A DNA stretch of 19,547 nucleotides from Calditrichia bacterium (GTDB lineage Bacteria > Calditrichota > Calditrichia > RBG-13-44-9), in assembly GCA_037381445.1 (NCBI GenBank), contig JARRQT010000038.1:1-19547 (forward strand), in the 5' to 3' direction. Below are positions 9,038 to 19,224 of the stretch, one piece after another. How positions within the stretch are numbered: position 1 is the stretch's first letter; every line of letters starts with the position of its first letter. A model generated the notes under the pieces. It searched no databases, had not been told where the DNA came from, and worked only from the letters and a program-made list of their open reading frames with translations. The translations under genes were made by a program, and so were the position numbers.

Positions 9038-10120
9038 CTACCGACCCTGTTCCTGTTCGATGGCAAGCATGACGGCTTTGCTGAAATCCTCCGGGGTAAC
9101 GCCCGGCGATTGAATCCGCAAGGCATGGTACGATTCCACGATCTTTTCCCGTACCGTCTCGGATTCCATAGAAATGCCGCGGAGCGCCTGCTCCATGCCC
9201 CCCAGGGCCATCCCTGGTAACAGCGTGAAATCACCGGAGAGCGCCACATCATCGATGCGGTTGTCATGCAGCCGGACGGTGGCGCGGATGAGTCCGCCGG
9301 GCGCTTTGTAAACCGAATCCAGCAATTTGACATCTTCATGAATTTTAATGCCGCTTTGTTTTAAAGTGCCTTTTCGGTAGAGCCATTCATCCGAAAGAAA
9401 CCGTTTATCGATCCGCTGCACCATCGTCTCTTCTTCCTCAGACCAGGTACCGGGGATCACCTCGGCATTCAGGGTTTTGGCCATCTTCTCCGCATAAAGC
9501 CTTTTCACCTTCTCCCGGTCCGGAATCTTCCCAAGCTGGTCCTTGATGGTGGTCATATACTGCTCCAGACTCTCAAAAATTTTATCGCGCATTTTTTCGG
9601 AGGGCACCTTCAGAACCCTGGCCATTTTTGATTTGTCAAAATCGAACATCAGGCTGCCGACCAACACTTCAGCCTCGCCGATTTGCGCCGCCCCGGTTCC
9701 CCCGATTTTTTTCCCATCCACATGAATATCGTTCACCGGCCGCAGATAGGCCGGTATATCGAGCGCCCGGTAGGTTTCAACCAGCGGTTTTACGTATAGG
9801 CGGAAACGTGTTTCCAGATCGGCGGGTAAAGAACCGGGATGAAAAATCCATTGCACAAATACCTGGTTATTGTCCAGGTACACGGCGCCGCCGCCGACCT
9901 CCCGGCGGTACACCGGAAACCCGCTCTCCCTGCAGTAATCGAGATCCACTTCCTTCTCCAAATCCTGATGAAATCCAATACAAACATAAGGCCGCGCGGG
10001 GTTTACCAGAATAACCGTATCCGGAGAATCCGGCTTCATGGCATAGGCAACCGCATGATAACAGGTTTGTGAGCGCAGGGGCGATACATTTCCCAAATCG
10101 AGCAGTCTGATTTGTTTCAT
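9038..10120 (-). CDS. lplA: Lipoate:protein ligase (LplA family, catalytic plus C-terminal accessory domain; resembles the sLpl(AB) type of sulfur metabolisers)
   Basis: IGFHQ, RREVGGGAVYLD, PVNDI, GKKIGGTG (catalytic Lys), GSLMFDFD, LKVPSEKMRDK and a C-terminal KAPGGLIR...ALSGDF accessory domain. Confidence 0.9.
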   Translation of the reverse strand: MKQIRLLDLGNVSPLRSQTCYHAVAYAMKPDSPDTVILVNPARPYVCIGFHQDLEKEVDLDYCRESGFPVYRREVGGGAVYLDNNQVFVQWIFHPGSLPADLETRFRLYVKPLVETYRALDIPAYLRPVNDIHVDGKKIGGTGAAQIGEAEVLVGSLMFDFDKSKMARVLKVPSEKMRDKIFESLEQYMTTIKDQLGKIPDREKVKRLYAEKMAKTLNAEVIPGTWSEEEETMVQRIDKRFLSDEWLYRKGTLKQSGIKIHEDVKLLDSVYKAPGGLIRATVRLHDNRIDDVALSGDFTLLPGMALGGMEQALRGISMESETVREKIVESYHALRIQSPGVTPEDFSKAVMLAIEQEQGR

Positions 10121-10401: not shown

Positions 10402-10890
10402 TCAAAGGTCTTTTTCCAGCAGCTCCCATTTTTTCAGAATCGCCATGGCCCGCTCCACGATTTCCGGAATGGCAGCCGCCACGGCAGAGCTCATTTCTGC
10501 TCCGATTTCTATGTCTTCCGGTTGAGCGCCAATGAGATGCAGGTACTTAGGGAATTTACCCCGCATGGCCGCAAATTCCAGGACCTCCTGGAAGGTTACC
10601 TGGTGCTGCGACATTTTCACCTGCGTATAAAGGGGAATCGCGTCTTTGCTCAATTCAATCACTGTTCCCGGTTCTTTGCGGGCATCAATGGCGTCCAGCA
10701 GCAAAAGGTGGCTGGATGCTTCCACGAAAGGGAGGAGATTCATTCCCAGCACGCCGCCGTCCAGTAATTCTACATTATGGGTATTACCAATTCGCTCCTG
10801 CAATGGCTTCAGGCAATGAACACCCAGCCCTTCATCGCGGTTCAGAATATTTCCCAGTCCCAAAACAATCTTGCGGTCTTTTCCGAACAT
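10402..10890 (-). CDS. hyaD: [NiFe]-hydrogenase maturation endopeptidase (HyaD/HybD family)
   Basis: VLGLGNILNRDEGLGVH, LLDGG, LLLLDAID, KMSQHQ. Lies directly downstream of the large subunit. Confidence 0.93.
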   Translation of the reverse strand: MFGKDRKIVLGLGNILNRDEGLGVHCLKPLQERIGNTHNVELLDGGVLGMNLLPFVEASSHLLLLDAIDARKEPGTVIELSKDAIPLYTQVKMSQHQVTFQEVLEFAAMRGKFPKYLHLIGAQPEDIEIGAEMSSAVAAAIPEIVERAMAILKKWELLEKDL

Positions 10891-10994: not shown

Positions 10995-12734
10995 TCACTT
11001 CAGACAGACATTAAAACCCGTTCCAACTTCCCCGACGGATTTGCCGTCAGCATCTACCATGTGAATCGCGCAGGCCAGACAGGGGTCGAATGAATGTATG
11101 GTTCGCAAGATCTCCAAGGGTTGATCCGGAACAGCCAGGGTGGTTCCCGGAAGCGAAGCTTCATACGCACCGGGCTGATCTTTATTATCACGCGGCGATC
11201 CGTTCCAGGTAGTAGGAACCACCATCTGATAATTGGAGATCTTCCCGCTGTCAATCACAATCCAGTGCCCTAACGCGCCCCGGGGGGCTTCCATAAAGCC
11301 GAATCCTTCCGCATGGTCTGGCCAACTGATCGGATCCCATTTTTCACCGTTGAAGGTTTGTGTGTTGCCGGACTGAATGAGGGTGATCAGCTCATCATAA
11401 TATCTCGGCAGCAGATCGCCAAAAACCTTGGTTTCGATGGCGCGTGCGGCAATCCGTCCCAGAGTGGAGAACAGTGCAGACGGCGGCGCTTTCAGCTTAT
11501 CCAGCACCACCCCCACCAGCTCCTGGGTGGGTTTATTGCCGGTGGCATACATGGCCAGCACCCGGGCCAGCGGTCCTACTTCGACAGGAGTTTCATTCCA
11601 GCGCGGCGCTTTCAGCCAGGAATATTTTTGATCCACTTCAAGATATTCGTAGGGAGGTTTGGGTCCCGTGTAATTGAAAACCGTTTCACCCTTCCACGGG
11701 TATAAACCGGCATCATTTCCCTGACTGTATTTGTACCATGAATGAGTTACAAACTCTTTCATCTTCTGCATATCATAGGGATCGGGGACGGTAATATTTT
11801 TCAGGTCCCGGTTCAGGATAAGGGTACGAGGCACATACAATTTCGAAAGATCATGGATATTGCCTTCCGGGAATTCACCCCAGGTCAGGAAATTTCCCAG
11901 GCCTTCGCCCAGCGCGGCATATTCCTTGTAATATGGGGCAATTGCCAAAACATCAGGCAAATAAACCTGGCTAATAAAGTCATTAATCTTGGTAATTGAA
12001 TCGTTAATTATAGACAGCCGGTCCGCATTCAGTGCCTGATCATTTTCCATATTTATGGGAAGCGGTACACCGCCCACCACAAAATTGGGATGGGGATTTT
12101 TTCCGCCGAAGATCACATGGATTTTAACCACATGGGCCTGCCAGTCCAGCGCTTCCAGGTAATGGGCCACCGCCAGCAGATTGATTTCCGGCGGAAGTTT
12201 ATAGGCCGGATGTCCCCAGTAACCGTTGGTGAAAAGACCCAATTGGCCGCTGTTGACGATGGCCTGTACTTTTTGTTGAACATCTGCGAAGTAACCGGGG
12301 GAAGAATTGGGCCAGGCGGAAAGACTTTGCTGAATATCGGAAGTTTTTTTCGGATCGGCTTTCAGCGCGCTTACCACATCCACAAAATCCAGCGCCTGCA
12401 GGTGGTAAAAATGCATCACATGATCATGCACGTATTGTTGGGCAATCATCATATTTCGGATGACATTCGCAGCCTGCGGGATCTGAATTTTCAGAGCGTC
12501 TTCCACCGAGCGAATGGAGGCGAAGGCATGGACAGTGGTGCATACGCCGCAGGCCCGCTGGGCAAATGCCCATGCTTCCCGGGGATCACGCCCTTTTAAA
12601 ATGATTTCTATACCACGCACCATGGTCCCGGAAGAGTAGGACTTGGTAATGGTATTATTCTGGTCCAGCTCCGCCTCAATCCGGAGATGGCCCTCAATAC
12701 GGGTTATCGGATCAACTACAAGTCGTTTGCTCAT
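10995..12734 (-). CDS. hynL: Group 1 [NiFe]-hydrogenase large subunit (Isp/Hyn-type by gene context)
   Basis: VDPITRIEGHLRIE, L1 QRACGVCTTVH, HFYHL, GGKNPHP, EAPRGALGHW, YQMVVPTTWN and L2 SFDPCLACAIH followed by a 21-aa cleavable tail. L2 has Cys, not Sec. Confidence 0.97.
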   Translation of the reverse strand: MSKRLVVDPITRIEGHLRIEAELDQNNTITKSYSSGTMVRGIEIILKGRDPREAWAFAQRACGVCTTVHAFASIRSVEDALKIQIPQAANVIRNMMIAQQYVHDHVMHFYHLQALDFVDVVSALKADPKKTSDIQQSLSAWPNSSPGYFADVQQKVQAIVNSGQLGLFTNGYWGHPAYKLPPEINLLAVAHYLEALDWQAHVVKIHVIFGGKNPHPNFVVGGVPLPINMENDQALNADRLSIINDSITKINDFISQVYLPDVLAIAPYYKEYAALGEGLGNFLTWGEFPEGNIHDLSKLYVPRTLILNRDLKNITVPDPYDMQKMKEFVTHSWYKYSQGNDAGLYPWKGETVFNYTGPKPPYEYLEVDQKYSWLKAPRWNETPVEVGPLARVLAMYATGNKPTQELVGVVLDKLKAPPSALFSTLGRIAARAIETKVFGDLLPRYYDELITLIQSGNTQTFNGEKWDPISWPDHAEGFGFMEAPRGALGHWIVIDSGKISNYQMVVPTTWNGSPRDNKDQPGAYEASLPGTTLAVPDQPLEILRTIHSFDPCLACAIHMVDADGKSVGEVGTGFNVCLK

Positions 12735-13237: not shown

Positions 13238-14551
13238 TCATTCCATTGCTTTTGAGACTAGATCGGACAGACTTCTCGCTTTAATATCCGATTTGTAATA
13301 ATCCAAACCATCATTGAACTGCAACAGGCAGTTTGAACAGACCATACAAACTGTTTTCGCGCCGATTTTATTCATCTGATCCATTTTCAGACCAAAGGCA
13401 GCGAAGCGCAGGGGATCTGCTTCCTTGATGGAAATGACGCCACCACCACCGCCGCAGCAAATCGATTGTTCTCTGTTTGGCGTCAACTCCTTGAAGGAAT
13501 TTGGGGCTAACATTTTCAATATTTCACGAGGCTCTTTGATGTGACTCCCGCGGCGCTGAATTTTGCAGGCATCATGAAAAGTGATAGTACCATTGTCATA
13601 GGCGCCTTTTTTCAGCTTAATCCGACCACTACGAATATAATCCGTCATTACTGCGATGATATGTGTAACAGTCAAGCCCTTGGGCACCTGCACAAGGTTT
13701 GCAGCCGTCCAGCGAAGGGCATCGTAGGCATGGCCGCATTCGCTCACCATAATACGTTTAACCCCCAATTCCTTTGCAGCATCGAAAAGGCGGCTCAGGA
13801 AAAGTCTGGTGTGCTCATCGCTTCCTTCAAAAAAACCGAAATTTACCATTTCACGGCCCTTGGTGCTGATGGTCCAGTTCTCGCCGGCCTTATTCAGGAT
13901 TGTTGCAATTGCCGCAATGGTGGAAGGAAATTTCATCATTTCGATAGAAGTGAATGCTACCAGGGTATCAGCTCCTTTTTTATTCATGGGGATATCCACC
14001 TCCCACTCATCGGTAATCCATTCCAGGCGCTCCTGATAACGATCCAGGGTCAGGCCCAGCGGGCTTCCAATCTCAATCTGTTTCTGCACGGCATCGTGCA
14101 GGTCTTTGGGCGTTACACCGGCGGCCGTCAAGGCACCACGCACCCGGTGGATAATGGGACCGAGGTCAATTCCCATAGGGCATACCAGGGAGCATTTATT
14201 GCAAACCGTGCAGGCTTCAAAAACGATTTTACTCCAATGTTCCAAATCTTCATCAGTAATCGGCTTTTCCAAGCCAACGGCTAAACGAAGTCTTCCGCCC
14301 AAAGTAAACCGCTGCTCATAAGCCCGACGCAGAATTTCAATTTTCCAAACGGGAGAGTAGGAAGGTTCCCCGGTTGCCTGATAATAATGGCAGCCATCGG
14401 CACAAAGTCCGCAGCGGGTACAGGCTTCCAACTGGCTGGCAACCCAGCCGCCGGTTTCCCTGATCAGCGCATTGACTGCAGTTTCCGAACGGGTAGACTT
14501 CGCCTTCCCGGTTTCGACTACATTTGCACTAACTGCTGATTCTGCATTCAT
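13238..14551 (-). CDS. isp2: Isp2-like / HdrD-DsrK family Fe-S oxidoreductase with a CCG domain
   Basis: Two ferredoxin motifs (CTRCGLCADGC, CTVCNKCSLVCP), ECGHA, and a complete C-terminal CCG motif HDAC...CCGGGGG...CSNC. Located between the hydrogenase subunits. Confidence 0.88.
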   Translation of the reverse strand: MNAESAVSANVVETGKAKSTRSETAVNALIRETGGWVASQLEACTRCGLCADGCHYYQATGEPSYSPVWKIEILRRAYEQRFTLGGRLRLAVGLEKPITDEDLEHWSKIVFEACTVCNKCSLVCPMGIDLGPIIHRVRGALTAAGVTPKDLHDAVQKQIEIGSPLGLTLDRYQERLEWITDEWEVDIPMNKKGADTLVAFTSIEMMKFPSTIAAIATILNKAGENWTISTKGREMVNFGFFEGSDEHTRLFLSRLFDAAKELGVKRIMVSECGHAYDALRWTAANLVQVPKGLTVTHIIAVMTDYIRSGRIKLKKGAYDNGTITFHDACKIQRRGSHIKEPREILKMLAPNSFKELTPNREQSICCGGGGGVISIKEADPLRFAAFGLKMDQMNKIGAKTVCMVCSNCLLQFNDGLDYYKSDIKARSLSDLVSKAME

Positions 14552-14564
14552 AAATTTCCTCCTT

Positions 14565-15242
14565 TCATGGCGTTACCGCCCGTTTGCCGAACTGTGCACC
14601 ATGTATTGTCCGTGAGAAGAAATATAGCATGAAGTGTGAAATACGGCTCAAGGGAATCCAGATGAGCAAGAGGTCCACTGCAATCATATGCAGACTGAAC
14701 GCCGCCTGATATTCAAACCACAGATGACGCGACATAACGTAACCGGTGATAAAAGGCAGAAATACGATGGTCCAGTTAAACCAGTCCGCCGTTCGGGTAA
14801 TTTTCTTCAGAACCGGGTGGACAAGTCTGTTAATCAGCAGTGCAACCAATGAAATAATGCCGATGGCAGCCAGCCAATCGACATAAGGCGCCGGCAAGGT
14901 GGGCCAGCCGAATCCAAGTATGCTTTTCCATACCAGCATGTGCGGGGCCCCGAAAAAGATGATTCCGAAAAGTGACAGATGGAAAACTCCACCCGCCACA
15001 TAGGTCAGTGCATTTTTATTAAAAGTCAGTTTTACCCAGGGAATGAAGGGTAGGATAAGTATAGATTTAAGGTAAGTTATTACAACCCCGCCGATTTTGC
15101 TCCCTTTGCTGGGAACACGATCCCGTTGCCAGCCCAACAGCACAACCCGGAAGAGCCGAAAAAACATTCCGAAAAGAAAAAACACCAGGGCGGCGTAAAA
15201 CATGGGACCGCGGAGAAACCGAAGTAGTTCATCCCAGGCCAT
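14565..15242 (-). CDS. isp1: Isp1-like / NarI-DsrM family membrane cytochrome b
   Basis: About five hydrophobic helices, candidate haem-ligand His residues in VFHLS, PHML, SLHMI and ISHF, and a WIPLSRISHF motif typical of NarI/DsrM-like proteins. Follows the small subunit. Confidence 0.85.
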   Translation of the reverse strand: MAWDELLRFLRGPMFYAALVFFLFGMFFRLFRVVLLGWQRDRVPSKGSKIGGVVITYLKSILILPFIPWVKLTFNKNALTYVAGGVFHLSLFGIIFFGAPHMLVWKSILGFGWPTLPAPYVDWLAAIGIISLVALLINRLVHPVLKKITRTADWFNWTIVFLPFITGYVMSRHLWFEYQAAFSLHMIAVDLLLIWIPLSRISHFMLYFFSRTIHGAQFGKRAVTP

Positions 15243-15251
15243 ATTTACCTC

Positions 15252-16361
15252 CTATTTCTCTTTTTTTGATTCATGTTCAGCGCGCTTCTTATTAATACTA
15301 TTTGCACCTGCCAATGCCACACCAACCGCAGCGCCGGCACCTGCCGCAATGCCAAATGCCGCCAGATCAGGACGATTTAGTGGTGCTGACTGACCCTGGT
15401 AAAATCCACCACCATCCCAGAAGTTGGGCTGGGAGCAGGCCAGGCAGGGGTGATTGGATTGTACAGGAAAGGAAAGTCCCTGATACCATTTCAGGGAAGA
15501 ACAGGCATTGTAGGTAGTAGGTCCTTTGCAGCCCAGTTTGTAGAGACAGTGGCCGGCGCGGGCACCATCGTCATCAAAACTATCGGCATATTTTCCGGCA
15601 TCATAGAACGGACGACGCAGGCAGTGGTCATGAATGGTGTGGCCGTAAAACGTCATGGGGCGGTTGAGGCTGTCCATCTCCGGCAATTTTCCCATTACCA
15701 GGAAATACACAATGGTGCCGGTGGTCACTTCGGGAATAGCAGGACAGCCGGGGATATTGAGAACCGGCTTGGAAGTAATCACTTCCCACACGCCGCGCGC
15801 ATTTGTGGGATTCGGATTAGCCTTGGGAATGCCGCCAAAAGCTGCGCAATTCCCGGTCGCGATAATCGCTGCTGCACCTTCCGCCGCCTCATTGAGCAGA
15901 TCAATATTTCCACGTCCGCCGATAGTGCAGAAAACCTGATCTTCGCCAATTGCCGGACTTCCTTCAACGACCAGAACATATTTACCTTTATACTTCTCCA
16001 TGGCTTCTTTCTTGGCCTCTTCTGCCTGGAATCCGGCAGCCGCCATCAGGGTTTCCTGGTAATCCAATGCAATTTTGTTCAGCACAAGCTTCACTAAACT
16101 GGGCGACCAGGAACGGGAAATCGCTTCTGTGCAACCGGCGCAATCCTGCAACTCCAACCAGATAATGGGCACACGGGGCTTGCTCTTCAACGCATCGGCC
16201 ACCATTTTTTCCGGGCTGGGACCTGCAACAGCCCCCAGCGCCTTGACCGGCGGGGAGAACTCAACTCCCATCAAACCCGCCAATAATCCGCAGAATTTCA
16301 TAAACTCCCGTCGCGAGACACCTTCTTCTTTGAGATGCTGATAGATGGTTTTTTCAGCCAT
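15252..16361 (-). CDS. hynS: Group 1 [NiFe]-hydrogenase small subunit, Tat-exported, with a C-terminal membrane anchor
   Basis: Tat motif SRREFMK. Proximal ligands CAGCTE, GNCAAFGG and PGCP; distal HDHC...CLYKLGC; medial YNAC...HPCLAC; hydrophobic C-terminal helix. Confidence 0.97.
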   Translation of the reverse strand: MAEKTIYQHLKEEGVSRREFMKFCGLLAGLMGVEFSPPVKALGAVAGPSPEKMVADALKSKPRVPIIWLELQDCAGCTEAISRSWSPSLVKLVLNKIALDYQETLMAAAGFQAEEAKKEAMEKYKGKYVLVVEGSPAIGEDQVFCTIGGRGNIDLLNEAAEGAAAIIATGNCAAFGGIPKANPNPTNARGVWEVITSKPVLNIPGCPAIPEVTTGTIVYFLVMGKLPEMDSLNRPMTFYGHTIHDHCLRRPFYDAGKYADSFDDDGARAGHCLYKLGCKGPTTYNACSSLKWYQGLSFPVQSNHPCLACSQPNFWDGGGFYQGQSAPLNRPDLAAFGIAAGAGAAVGVALAGANSINKKRAEHESKKEK

Positions 16362-16390: not shown

Positions 16391-16837
16391 TTATTCACAC
16401 GAAATATTTTCAGCCTCCAGTTTGGCCTTGTAGGTTTCCAGACCTTCGGCGCCGGTCACCAGCTCGGACCTTTCCTGGTCCCATGCACTCGCTTCCAGTT
16501 CGGCAATCCAGCCCTCACCGTAAGGATCGCTGATGGCCAGATTGGGATCGGCGTCCAGTTTCTCGTTGACCTTCACCAGTGTTCCGGTTACCGGCGCGGG
16601 AACGGGTCCCACATATTTGCTGCTTTCCACCGTAGCAAGGCTTTTTCCCTTGGGAATCTCTTTCCCAATATTTTTAGTTTTAGCCGTCACCGCATTCAGT
16701 TTCCCGCCGGACAGTTTTCCCGCCACAGTATTCATACCGACGCGAATAACATTTCCCTGCATTGGTTTCGCCCAGATGTGCTTATCAATAAAATAATAAA
16801 GATCTTCCGGAAGATCACAACCTTTTAGCTTACTCAT
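16391..16837 (-). CDS. lbpA: Lipoate-binding protein of the GcvH fold, LbpA-type
   Basis: GcvH-like LPEDLYY...HIW...VRVG-like...APVTG...VNE...DPYGEGWIAEL. The lipoyl-Lys74 sits in ESSKYVGP (LbpA-like ESxKxVGP rather than GcvH ESVKAASD). Cys7 and Cys147 near the termini match the LbpA pattern. No gcvP/gcvT in the window. Confidence 0.85.
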   Translation of the reverse strand: MSKLKGCDLPEDLYYFIDKHIWAKPMQGNVIRVGMNTVAGKLSGGKLNAVTAKTKNIGKEIPKGKSLATVESSKYVGPVPAPVTGTLVKVNEKLDADPNLAISDPYGEGWIAELEASAWDQERSELVTGAEGLETYKAKLEAENISCE

Positions 16838-16849
16838 GAGAACCTCCTT

Positions 16850-17218
16850 TTAAAATGATAAAACAGTTTTACATTCTTCCGCCATTTGCCACATGGAAGC
16901 GCCGCCAACCATCTTGACATTTTCGATCAAATCTTCCTGGGTGAGATCATGAAGTTCCATGGAAGCCGTGCAGGCAGTCATCTTTACACCGGCTTCCAGT
17001 GCTTCCTGCAGAAATTCGCCCGCCGATTTTCCGCCTTCCTTGGGATAAATGGTCTCCGCCAGCCCTTTCTTCAGCAGCAGAGTTCCGTCAATGGTAAAAA
17101 ACATCGTAACTTCGTAATCCATAGCAGCGGCCAGTGTGGCCATGAAAAATGGCGTGGCACAGCGCCGGGGGGTATCTGGCCCGCTGGTCATAACAACCAT
17201 GACTTTATCTTCATCCAT
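16850..17218 (-). CDS. DsrE/DsrF-like sulfurtransferase family protein
   Basis: 122 aa. TSGPDTPRRCATPFFMATLAAAMDYEVTMFFTIDGTLLLKKG...GVKMTACTAS (Cys83 at the DsrE active-site position)...VLSF. Confidence 0.85.
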   Translation of the reverse strand: MDEDKVMVVMTSGPDTPRRCATPFFMATLAAAMDYEVTMFFTIDGTLLLKKGLAETIYPKEGGKSAGEFLQEALEAGVKMTACTASMELHDLTQEDLIENVKMVGGASMWQMAEECKTVLSF

Positions 17219-17277: not shown

Positions 17278-17754
17278 CTAAAATGTCAATGTGATGGCAT
17301 CATGACTGGCATATTCCAGAAAAGTAGCGGCGCCACCGATTTCGAGATTGTCCAGCAAATCTTCCTTTTTAATCCCCATAACATCCATTGTCATCTGGCA
17401 GGCAATCAGCCTGACATCCATCTCCATTGCCATTTCAATAAGCTCGCTCAATTTTGCCACATTGGCCTTTCTCATCCAGCCATTCATCATGGAAGTTGCC
17501 ATGGAGGTCATTCCCGGCAGCATGCCCACAATATTCGGAATGGATACGGGCATTGCCGGATTGGCAATAGGCGCAACCTGTAATTTATCTGCCCTCCCCT
17601 TTTTGAGAATTTCCAATCCGTAGAAGGTAAAAAAGATAGCAACTTCCATATCCAGCGCTGCGGCAGCGGTTGCCAGGATAAGCGGCGGATAAGCGGCATC
17701 CAGCGAGCCATGAGCCGCAATAATTGCCAGCCGTTTCTTGGTTTCTTCGGCCAT
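17278..17754 (-). CDS. dsrE2: DsrE2-type sulfurtransferase (DrsE_2 family)
   Basis: AYPPLILATAAAALDMEVAIFFTFYGL, LIACQMTMDVMG (single Cys119) and GGAATFLE. Directly follows tusA. Confidence 0.87.
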   Translation of the reverse strand: MAEETKKRLAIIAAHGSLDAAYPPLILATAAAALDMEVAIFFTFYGLEILKKGRADKLQVAPIANPAMPVSIPNIVGMLPGMTSMATSMMNGWMRKANVAKLSELIEMAMEMDVRLIACQMTMDVMGIKKEDLLDNLEIGGAATFLEYASHDAITLTF

Positions 17755-17804: not shown

Positions 17805-18041
17805 CTATTTGGTCTTCTTGATGTAAAAAACGAATTTGCCGCCTTCTTCCTCGTGCTCCAGCAGCTGATGGCCGGTTTTTTGTGTCCAGGCATTTACATC
17901 GCTGACGGAACCGGGATCCGTCGCGATCATTTTTAAGACCTCACCGACCTTCAGGCCGTCTACTGCCTTTTTGGTCTTGATAATTGGCATCGGACACGCC
18001 AGCCCGCTGCAGTCGAGTGTTTGATTCGGATTCACAGCCAT
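17805..18041 (-). CDS. tusA: TusA family sulfur carrier protein
   Basis: 78 aa. LDCSGLACPMP (CPxP persulfide Cys16), GEVLKMIATDPGS and FVFYIKK, with an AAGGAGG RBS. Confidence 0.95.
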   Translation of the reverse strand: MAVNPNQTLDCSGLACPMPIIKTKKAVDGLKVGEVLKMIATDPGSVSDVNAWTQKTGHQLLEHEEEGGKFVFYIKKTK

Positions 18042-18399: not shown

Positions 18400-19164
18400 T
18401 TAATCTTCTGCATCAATTTTGCTCAAATCCGCGATCTTCTTCAAACGACGGGAGAACTCCGCCCTTTCCCGGGTGACCTGTTCAAAGGTTTGAGCTACTT
18501 TTTCCAGCCACGGGGCTATTTGTTTTTGGCGTTTTTCGCCAATCACCTGAATTTCCTTTGCGGCGGCGGTCAACGCCTTCTCGTCCAGATGATACCGCCC
18601 GGCCAGACGATGGATTCGCTCCTTTTCTTCGACGGGATCAGGCTGGCTGGTATAAAATTGTCCCGCGATCAGCATGGCCGCCAGTTCGCCGTCCAGTTCT
18701 ATGCGGGCGCGGGCATACTGCAGACCAGCATGGCAAGTAACGAATTGGGGTCGAACACTCGATTGCTCCGCCAGTTTTTTCCAGCAATCGATGCAATCCT
18801 GACGGCCCTTGTCCATGGAAAAAATCATATCACAGAAACGGCATGAATTACTGATGTGCGTCAGCGGTTCGCCCTCCGGCGATGTGGTGACCGAACCGAC
18901 ATCAGCAATTTCTGCAAAAACATCCTGAATGGGGGCGATACAGTGAATGGGCAGAATAGATTTCATCTGCATTTTGGTCTGGGATTTGGGAACATCCTGC
19001 ACGGCAATGAGGTCCTGAATATTTTTCCGGGGGAAACGCCAGTGGTTTCCCACCTTTACCGCTTTCAAACGCCCGTCATTAATCATGCGGTAAATGGTGG
19101 TCCTGTCCACTTTCAGCAAATCCAGAACCTGTTTGGTTGTTAATAAATCTTCCACAACATACAT
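18400..19164 (-). CDS. Transcriptional regulator: excisionase-type HTH (HTH_17) fused to a PocR sensory domain
   Basis: N-terminal LLTTKQVLDLLKVDRTTIYRMINDGRLKAVKVGNHWRF (excisionase/HTH_17). C-terminal GEPLT..SNSCRFC...C..C...FVTCHAGL...ELAAMLIAGQF (PocR domain). Confidence 0.88.
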   Translation of the reverse strand: MYVVEDLLTTKQVLDLLKVDRTTIYRMINDGRLKAVKVGNHWRFPRKNIQDLIAVQDVPKSQTKMQMKSILPIHCIAPIQDVFAEIADVGSVTTSPEGEPLTHISNSCRFCDMIFSMDKGRQDCIDCWKKLAEQSSVRPQFVTCHAGLQYARARIELDGELAAMLIAGQFYTSQPDPVEEKERIHRLAGRYHLDEKALTAAAKEIQVIGEKRQKQIAPWLEKVAQTFEQVTRERAEFSRRLKKIADLSKIDAED

Positions 19165-19166
19165 CC

Positions 19167-19197
19167 ATTTGCTATAGCTTACTACTATTTGCTATAG
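19167..19197. promoter_or_regulatory. 11-bp direct repeat at 20-bp spacing (candidate operator)
   Basis: atttgctatag at 19167-19177 and 19187-19197, with a degenerate ttactac unit between them. Overlaps the predicted -10 and transcription start. Confidence 0.6.
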
Positions 19198-19224
19198 TAT
19201 ATAAAATGAAATTGGACATGTCAA
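19196..19224 (-). promoter_or_regulatory. Near-consensus sigma70 promoter of the HTH-PocR regulator
   Basis: Minus strand TTGACA (19224-19219), 17-nt spacer, TATACT (19201-19196), 31 nt upstream of the ATG at 19164. Confidence 0.8.

Follow-up and report, generated by a model that had tools for sequence, protein, structure and literature searches.

LbpA-type proteins are lipoyl carriers defined by a lipoyl lysine and by two terminal cysteines that are absent from GcvH (Cao et al., PMC6067878). According to the same account, they do not replace GcvH and do not complement gcvH, they are described only as part of sHdr sulfur oxidation with every studied LbpA being sulfur-oxidising, and the potential of lipoamide is about -0.29 V. 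A second source reports that ligase specificity is set at three positions, which hold basic residues and a proline, that LbpA is marked against GcvH by a higher pI and by ligase-recognition residues that are basic or neutral, that the LbpA cysteines are dispensable for lipoylation and for recognition by the ligase, and that the two cysteines are near each other in the modelled structure of H. denitrificans LbpA2 (10.64898/2026.10.01.755906). TusA is stated to co-purify with DsrE and with LbpA (PMC11094781).

Hydrogenases of the Isp type are defined by the placement of isp1 and isp2 between the genes of the small and large subunits (PMC7735108, PMC10892978). Enzymes of group 1e are thought to use sulfur as an acceptor and are described as bidirectional (PMC7735108), and in darkness Hyd uses H2 to reduce sulfur (PMC10892978). 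For Isp2, the acceptor put forward in one preprint is ferredoxin or NAD+, and the Isp-type hydrogenases of Acidianus are described there as interacting with a sulfur reductase (10.1101/2022.12.13.520232).

Here, we analyze a locus in which genes of both kinds stand together. The window, meaning the whole stretch of DNA that was analyzed, is 19,547 nucleotides long, and the features that we recognize in it are collected in Table 1.

Table 1. Features of the locus. Fractions are genes found over loci in which the contig leaves room for them, among the best 80 of 169 loci.
Feature	Position	Strand	Remarks
predicted sigma-70-like promoter TTGACA-17-TATACT, preceding the regulator gene	19196..19224	-	11/12 consensus match
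candidate operator: two CTATAGCAAA units 20 nt apart, degenerate unit between them	19168..19197	-	spans -10 box to start codon
regulator, Xis/BldC-like HTH_17 with PocR sensor domain	18400..19164	-	59/71
tusA-family sulfur carrier	17805..18041	-	PF01206; 68/75
dsrE2-type sulfur carrier	17278..17754	-	71/77
dsrE-family sulfur transferase	16850..17218	-	78/78
lbpA, putative lipoyl carrier with two cysteines, hydrogenase-linked clade	16391..16837	-	Cys7, Lys74, Cys147; ESSK[FY]VGP; short insert at about residues 45-47
hynS, [NiFe] hydrogenase small subunit	15252..16361	-	TIGR00391 above cut-off; 3' of lbpA in 80/80
isp1, NarI/DsrM-like membrane subunit, predicted b-heme	14565..15242	-	76/76
isp2, DsrK/HdrD-like Fe-S subunit	13238..14551	-	PF02754; 75/75
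optional STAS/SpoIIAA-like protein, 106 aa	12744..13064	-	weak PF11964; Atlas 0.96; 38/72
hynL, [NiFe] hydrogenase large subunit	10995..12734	-	PF00374; 72/72
hyaD-type hydrogenase maturation protease	10402..10890	-	64/67
lipoate:protein ligase Lpl(AB)	9038..10120	-	groups with type II sHdr ligases; 63/68

Results

Sequence, fold and conservation of the carrier

The lbpA reading frame encodes 148 amino acids, with Cys7 and Cys147 as its only cysteines and with the lipoyl motif ESSK74YVGP. It lies 12 nt from the upstream dsrE and 29 nt from the downstream hynS. These residues and the distance to the hydrogenase gene agree with the sequence-only reading of this DNA, as do the sulfurtransferase and hydrogenase neighbours, which are TusA, DsrE2, DsrE and a [NiFe] hydrogenase. 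The protein matches Pfam GCV_H (E=2e-26), and its AlphaFold model (pLDDT 83) resembles H-proteins, with a TM of 0.77 to 1onl; it is thus predicted to be a GcvH fold with a conserved lipoyl lysine. Nevertheless, it scores under the cut-off of every NCBIfam model of the GcvH type (91.8 versus 117, 68 versus 116 and, for not_gcvH, 46.5 versus 144). Where sources name its homologues, the name given is 'glycine cleavage system H protein', which is the automated label that had been foreseen.

Conservation of the terminal cysteines in close homologues had been named beforehand as a test. Among the best 120 of 1424 homologues, Cys7 is present in 119/120, Lys74 in 120/120 and Cys147 in 119/120, and at the best 80 of 169 genome loci each of the three is found in 80/80. 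The Cys7 and Cys147 columns coincide with the cysteine positions of other LbpAs, and neither cysteine occurs in the GcvH consensus (14 rows). At the ligase-discriminating positions, which were mapped via an LbpA2-like protein and not the R. mucosus sequence itself, the protein carries K53/K55, K65 and P78, where GcvH has acidic residues (Asp-Glu/Asp opposite Lys65/Pro78). Its pI is 5.3, versus a median of 4.1 for GcvH. It shares 39-53% identity with the first-position LbpAs of type II sHdr clusters, 37-45% with LbpA2-like proteins and 30-38% with GcvH. The hydrogenase-linked proteins have a signature of their own: ESSK[FY]VGP where other LbpAs have KW, and the short insert near residue 45.

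Placement of the carrier among LbpAs

Of 155 rows, 10 were dropped to give a quick tree of 145, and a careful tree was made from a 65-row subset; GcvH-L is not among the rows. The references include LbpAs of type II sHdr clusters from Calditrichota, the phylum of the window, and from Chloroflexota, the clusters having been labelled in-house by Pfam domains and gene order against the description given in PMC11094781. The LbpA2-like references are proteobacterial and Aquificota proteins, assigned by Cys7/Cys145, a terminal GGC and source names alone. In the careful tree, the hydrogenase-linked proteins form one clade (100/100), nested in a two-cysteine LbpA group (99/96); GcvH (100/98) and a cysteine-less group from lipS cassettes (100/93) fall outside it. 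The quick tree joins the hydrogenase-linked proteins to the LbpA2-like and first-position type II proteins (SH-aLRT 98), while the careful tree leaves their sister group unsettled. In AU tests on 145 columns, grouping the clade with type II LbpAs comes at near-zero cost (p=0.49), and grouping it with GcvH is not rejected (p=0.057). Thus, the separation from GcvH that the earlier reading expected of such a tree is seen in the topology, without a formal rejection by the AU test.

The terminal cysteines, the residues at the ligase positions, the place in the tree among LbpAs and a separate genomic gcv set together support the assignment of the window protein, from its sequence, as LbpA-type and not GcvH. 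The earlier claim of an LbpA therefore holds as regards sequence, tree position and the gcv genes elsewhere, although the published hallmark of being encoded with shdr genes is lacking. In other words, the protein passes the sequence tests for an LbpA, yet by gene content it is no part of an sHdr system, since no sHdr catalytic core was found in the 92%-complete genome. The suggestion that it may define a hydrogenase-associated subclade is borne out: such a subclade exists, with full support, its own signature and hynS as the next gene in 80/80 of the best loci.

Two terminal cysteines alone are no proof of sulfur metabolism, because a proteobacterial two-cysteine family has genes for Crp/Fnr, hemerythrin and thioredoxin/NnrS as its neighbours; for the window protein, it is the neighbouring genes that carry the argument. 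A member of that family, an Acidithiobacillus plasmid protein (33% identical), was considered as an sHdr LbpA reference and rejected on account of these neighbours. The family was treated as a separate group; its context comes from 6/80 metagenome loci read gene by gene, and none of the 80 loci bears the sHdr cluster label. The H-fold proteins of this family end in CMRC (L087:787-1233; L175:8846-11699; L185:9543-10447), and the family is another LbpA-like clade outside sulfur-oxidation clusters, perhaps linked to stress.

The C-terminal cysteine is absent from 8/16 LbpAs that hold the first position in type II sHdr clusters of Chloroflexota (L233-L244), so the two-cysteine rule has bacterial exceptions. 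In one protein of 222 aa (P0264), a GcvH/LbpA-like domain is fused to a TusA domain.

A conserved operon around the carrier

On the minus strand, the genes follow in the order HTH_17-PocR regulator, tusA, dsrE2, dsrE, lbpA, hynS, isp1, isp2, STAS-like, hynL, hyaD and ligase. A genome scan gave 169 confirmed relatives, and the best 80 loci, two of which share one isolate name, were analyzed. Their hosts are Chloroflexota (60), Bacillota, Aminicenantota and Ignavibacteriota (4 each), Calditrichota, Bacteroidota and Actinomycetota (1 each) and 5 with no phylum assigned. As the linkage counts in Table 1 show, pocR-tusA-dsrE2-dsrE-lbpA-hynS-isp1-isp2-hynL-hyaD-lpl is a conserved operon-like cluster found in at least six phyla; the gap between lbpA and hynS ranges from 9 to 635 nt (median 78) in these 80 loci. 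The flanking DUF502, YgiQ and amidase genes were considered as operon parts and set aside, as any other gene cluster is shared by at most 8/80 of the best loci.

The putative sulfur carriers and the regulator keep their cysteines throughout. Among the best 80 of 169 loci, Cys16 of TusA is invariant in 66/66, Cys119 of DsrE2 in 70/70, Cys20 and Cys83 of DsrE in 77/77, and Cys111, Cys124 and Cys144 of the regulator in 51/51. The STAS-like protein has an invariant CxH and second Cys (38/38), and its gene stands elsewhere in the operon in two loci (L069 and L084).

By gene order, with isp1 and isp2 between hynS and hynL, the hydrogenase is assigned to group 1e, Isp type. HynS presumably carries a twin-arginine motif and a hydrophobic C-terminal stretch, as read in its sequence. 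Isp1 matches the TmcC/HmcE models below their cut-off, and its His88, 101, 173, 185 and 203 are invariant (71/71 among the best 80 of 169 loci). The best model for Isp2 is DsrK, at 239 bits versus a cut-off of 400. Isp2 contains two ferredoxin motifs (CxxCxxCxxxC), one complete CCG motif (C329, C365, C366, C405, C408) and an invariant C272; its cysteines are kept in 68-70 of 70 sequences from the same 80 loci. The closest solved structure to HynL is 3MYR.

Since the loci had been picked by the carrier, a reverse co-occurrence search was run. In Chloroflexota (251 sampled), the same 5 genomes, one of them the centre genome, hold the carrier and Isp2, each at more than 60% identity; in the phylum of the window, both co-occur in the same 2/86 genomes. 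The high identity and patchy occurrence suggest to us that the cluster was transferred as a unit. Over 48 loci, whose kin are not independent, the pairwise identities of the carrier track those of Isp1, Isp2 and HynL (rho 0.76, 0.74 and 0.70), as opposed to rho 0.34 for the carrier and the ligase. This low value and a quick ligase tree indicate that the ligase is exchanged between loci.

In 7/80 of the best loci (L029, L040, L058, L068 and L081, also L033 and L046), the hydrogenase operon is joined by a cassette that contains lipS1/lipS2-like genes and encodes ligases and an H protein devoid of cysteines. The LipS1 match in L081 lies inside a 701-aa open frame, a possible fusion.

Relatedness to type II sHdr clusters

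Type II sHdr clusters encode homologues of TusA, DsrE2, DsrE, the ligase and LbpA, all at 40-69% identity and in similar order; the identity reaches 69% for TusA, 56% for DsrE2, 55% for DsrE and 65% for the ligase. Several type II sHdr clusters start tusA-dsrE2-lpl-dsrE-lbpA, and a DsrE homologue precedes lbpA in type II sHdr loci. In the quick ligase tree, the ligase of the operon interleaves with those of sHdr loci, far from the other ligase of the genome (25% identity); judged by context, it is probably of the sLpl(AB) type. Type II sHdr-like clusters occur in about 13/86 genomes of the phylum of the window. In one type II sHdr cluster (L106:3470-5920, G035:C7), there is an Isp1/Isp2-like pair, 28%/37% identical to the window proteins, with no hydrogenase; the pair stands directly before a cysteine-less H-fold gene.

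The region upstream of the operon

The promoter candidate is the best of 17 sites in the search, where 13.7 are expected by chance. It overlaps an array of TAT[AT]GCA repeats with a 10-nt period that reaches the start codon of the regulator. At least two such units on this period are present in 34/54 regulator-led loci, in 0/16 loci that this regulator does not lead and in 31/2700 shuffles, the motif having been derived from the same loci in which it was counted. The exact paired motif has one occurrence in the genome. BldC-like HTH proteins are described as binding direct repeats head to tail (PMC5859096). Given such binding and the repeat array, the HTH-PocR regulator likely autoregulates the operon via the 10-nt repeats. 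The closeness of the promoter to the start codon suggests that the regulator mRNA is leaderless or nearly so. A search of the window against Rfam gave no match, and a terminator search of the window gave no excess.

Gene content of the genome and of other carrier genomes

As had been read earlier, no gcvP/gcvT or 2-oxoacid dehydrogenase occurs among the window proteins scanned. In the genome, which is 92% complete, a canonical gcvH-gcvPA-gcvPB cluster lies on contig C96 and gcvT on contig C332. No match to shdrC1/B1/A/H, lipT or lipS was obtained in this 92%-complete genome, and dsrA, dsrC, a YeeE-type sulfur importer and LipS1 were likewise not found in it. lipA is present, and two DLDH genes score over the cut-off. 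The intact lipA lies on contig C112 beside 2-oxoacid dehydrogenase-like genes, and a second lipA is split into two frames (G000:C114:8603-9374). The genome encodes two more [NiFe] hydrogenases of the group 1 type, on contigs C80 and C50, each with cytochrome b-like genes behind it, so that ordinary H2 uptake is provided for outside the operon. Within the window, an aspartate kinase gene contains a perfect 72-nt in-frame tandem duplication (2730-2873), possibly an assembly artefact.

A survey of carrier genomes covered those of 50 of the 80 loci, chosen mostly for longer contigs, most being incomplete MAGs. sHdrB1 was found in 2/50 and dsrA in 5/50; with the genome of the window included, LipS1 was found in 6/51 and a DsrC-family protein in 28/51.

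Discussion

A possible role in hydrogen-driven sulfur reduction

The clade, the gene cluster and the invariant residues are there to be explained, in a genome with no detectable sHdr or Dsr genes. We give an even chance, judging from the sequences, to the proposal that LbpA, once lipoylated by the ligase of the cluster, is a cytoplasmic substrate for the H2-driven reduction of protein-bound sulfur to sulfide. HynSL would oxidise H2 outside the membrane, and the hemes of Isp1 would conduct the electrons inward. TusA, DsrE2 and DsrE would load sulfane sulfur onto LbpA, either at the lipoyl thiols or at the Cys7/Cys147 pair, and the CCG site of Isp2 would then reduce the resulting per-, di- or trisulfide on LbpA, thereby freeing the carrier and sulfide. 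DsrK is held to reduce DsrC-bound sulfur, which serves as the model for the step between Isp2 and LbpA. The HTH-PocR protein would bind the 10-nt repeats and regulate the operon. Overall, this would amount to the sulfur relay of sHdr-LbpA systems attached to a hydrogenase and run reductively. That it constitutes an H2:sulfur oxidoreductase pathway not previously described, with the lipoylated two-cysteine LbpA as a DsrC-like substrate of Isp2 and the sHdr relay working backwards on a hydrogenase, is a more tentative proposition, to which we give somewhat less than an even chance.

Several lines of evidence favour the reductive mechanism. Isp2 has a site of the disulfide-reductase type, with a full CCG motif, and the cluster offers no other substrate for it; the cysteines of the carrier are invariant, the linkage is fixed, the carrier and Isp2 co-occur in the reverse search, and the divergence of the carrier tracks that of Isp1, Isp2 and HynL. 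The resemblance of the sulfur carriers, the ligase and LbpA to their counterparts in type II sHdr clusters counts in its favour as well. Alternative partners are scarce, given that shdrC1/B1/A/H, dsrA and dsrC were not found in the genome and that sHdrB1 and dsrA are rare in the carrier genomes surveyed (2/50 and 5/50). Published accounts of sulfur as an acceptor for group 1e (PMC7735108), of dark sulfur reduction by Hyd (PMC10892978) and of the co-purification of TusA, DsrE and LbpA (PMC11094781) point the same way.

Other findings weigh against it. Genes do not reveal direction, and group 1e is described as bidirectional (PMC7735108); Isp-type hydrogenases are presented with no mention of a carrier in the available text of the preprint that proposes ferredoxin or NAD+ for Isp2 (10.1101/2022.12.13.520232). 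The DsrC-family protein of 28/51 carrier genomes could be the partner of Isp2 there, LipS1, which would complete the lipoyl arm, is found in only 6/51, and the YeeE-type importer was not found in the genome. tusA is missing in 7/75 and dsrE2 in 6/77 of the best 80 of 169 loci, so that the full sulfur relay would be dispensable in some of them; the loci of Oscillochloris sp. ZM17-4 and Chloroflexales ZM16-3, two carriers whose records are not MAGs, have neither gene. H2 has a potential of about -0.41 V, which against that of lipoamide leaves a small driving force relative to the membrane potential.

Alternative explanations

The same proteins could instead pass electrons without any turnover of sulfur. 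DLDH and NADH would reduce lipoyl-LbpA, Isp2 and Isp1 would pass the electrons out and HynSL would evolve H2, or H2 would yield NADH, while TusA and DsrE would supply sulfur for cofactor assembly. The two DLDH genes of the genome would suit such a role, as would the coupling of LbpA to NAD+ through E3 proposed in PMC6067878 and the bidirectionality ascribed to the enzyme group (PMC7735108). So would the hosts, since most carriers are Anaerolineae and Aminicenantes-type organisms. We regard this as unlikely, for no DLDH-like gene is found among the recurrent annotated neighbours at the best 80 of 169 loci, and the operon retains three sulfur carriers whose cysteines are invariant, even though LipS1 was found in only 6/51 carrier genomes. 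Anaerolineae and Aminicenantes-type organisms are often fermenters, which is why they were counted in favour of the electron shuttle. The invariance of Cys7 and Cys147 would be left unexplained by it, these cysteines being dispensable for recognition by the ligase (10.64898/2026.10.01.755906).

A use in the oxidative direction or in detoxification appears quite unlikely to us. Here, sulfide or sulfane sulfur collected by TusA and DsrE would be processed on LbpA and the electrons would leave via Isp2 and Isp1 to quinone or protons, a valve for sulfur stress or redox balance and not a respiration. It agrees with the action of all studied LbpAs in sulfur oxidation, as reported in PMC6067878, with the occurrence of sHdrB1 in 2/50 carriers and of type II sHdr clusters in 3/5 Chloroflexota carriers, and with the related two-cysteine family among stress-type genes. 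On the other hand, sHdrB1 was not found in 48/50 carriers, nor shdrC1/B1/A/H in the genome of the window. The oxidation of sulfide with protons as the acceptor is, moreover, uphill at standard state.

That LbpA and the hydrogenase are only co-regulated neighbours, with no interaction between LbpA and Isp2 and with Isp2 serving DsrC-like proteins, ferredoxin or a quinone-linked sulfur reductase, strikes us as improbable. DsrC-family genes do occur in 28/51 carriers, loci exchange the ligase gene (rho 0.34), and there is the interaction of the Acidianus Isp-type hydrogenases with a sulfur reductase (10.1101/2022.12.13.520232). These points have to be set against the one-to-one co-occurrence and the fixed order across phyla, against the failure to find dsrC here or in 22 other carriers, and against the Isp1/Isp2-like pair directly before an H-fold gene in the type II sHdr cluster of L106, though that H protein lacks cysteines.

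Finally, an ordinary or spare GcvH for glycine cleavage or lipoyl relay, to which the Pfam GCV_H match, the H-protein fold and the AU result (p=0.057) would lend themselves, is extremely unlikely in view of the canonical gcv genes on C96 and C332, the lower identity to GcvH (30-38% versus 39-53% to sHdr LbpAs), Lys65/Pro78 in place of Asp-Glu/Asp, the pI of 5.3 versus 4.1, the GcvH clade standing apart (100/98) and the reported failure of LbpAs to complement gcvH (PMC6067878).

Significance

All parts of the operon are of known kinds. In literature searches, we found no description of their combination or of the clade, though reviews and preprint supplements may mention the operon. It unites LbpA with an Isp-type hydrogenase and offers a small soluble protein as a candidate substrate for Isp2, whose acceptor in hydrogenases of this type is still conjectural according to 10.1101/2022.12.13.520232. 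If the reductive mechanism is true, lipoate has a role, and a reductive respiratory one, in hydrogen-driven sulfur chemistry, and many bacteria of sediments, soils and digesters without known dissimilatory sulfur genes may reduce sulfur. Many uncultured anaerobes would then be able to respire sulfur in the cytoplasm with no need for Dsr, Psr/Sre or sHdr. For annotation, ESSK[FY]VGP together with the terminal cysteines corrects the common label 'glycine cleavage H protein', and lbpA, tusA or dsrE alone should not be taken as markers of sulfur oxidation.

Comparison with described systems

The carrier shares its fold and lipoyl lysine with GcvH and GcvH-L. GcvH is acidic and lacks the cysteines, and the carrier falls under the cut-offs of TIGR00527 and TIGR03077; it has neither the acidic ligase surface nor the gcvP/gcvT context of a canonical GcvH, a role that is filled by the gcvH on C96. 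As for GcvH-L, the TIGR03077 score is 46.5 versus 144 bits, and the GcvH-L structure 5a35 is only 18% identical to LbpA. GcvH-L operons contain sirtuin/macrodomain genes, and no neighbours of this type occur in the window.

With DsrMK(JOP)-DsrC and HdrDE, the locus has in common a membrane subunit with predicted b-heme, an Fe-S subunit with a CCG domain and a small two-cysteine candidate substrate. DsrC is itself a small two-cysteine protein that is held to be the substrate of DsrK. Unlike in DsrMK(JOP)-DsrC, Isp2 scores below the DsrK cut-off, neither dsrA nor dsrC was found in the genome, and the candidate substrate has a lipoyl fold.

The gene order HynS-Isp1-Isp2-HynL is that of the group 1e hydrogenases of Thiocapsa, Allochromatium and Acidithiobacillus, and the best solved match of HynL, 3MYR, is what we take to be the Allochromatium hydrogenase. 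In contrast to known group 1e loci, the regulator, tusA, dsrE2, dsrE and lbpA precede the hydrogenase genes and a lipoate ligase follows, and the hosts are mostly uncultured Chloroflexota, Aminicenantes, Ignavibacteria, Calditrichota and Bacillota. For the known 1e/1g enzymes, no such carrier is mentioned in the available text of PMC7735108, PMC10892978 and 10.1101/2022.12.13.520232.

The closest resemblance is to the LbpAs of sHdr systems (LbpA2 of Hyphomicrobium/Thioalkalivibrio and those of type II), which have the GcvH fold, the lipoyl lysine, the N- and C-terminal cysteines, the basic and Pro residues at the ligase-discriminating positions, and TusA, DsrE2, DsrE and an sHdr-type ligase as companions. 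The clade of the window differs in having ESSK[FY]VGP with the short insert versus ES[GAS]KWVGP, and its lbpA is a single copy in the operon that precedes hynS, whereas the lbpA of sHdr systems is encoded with shdr. sHdr-LbpA systems have LipS1/LipS2; here, LipS1 was not found in the genome and is present in 6/51 carriers, while lipA is present. An Isp-type hydrogenase stands in place of the sHdr core, next to carrier and ligase genes that have their homologues in type II sHdr clusters.
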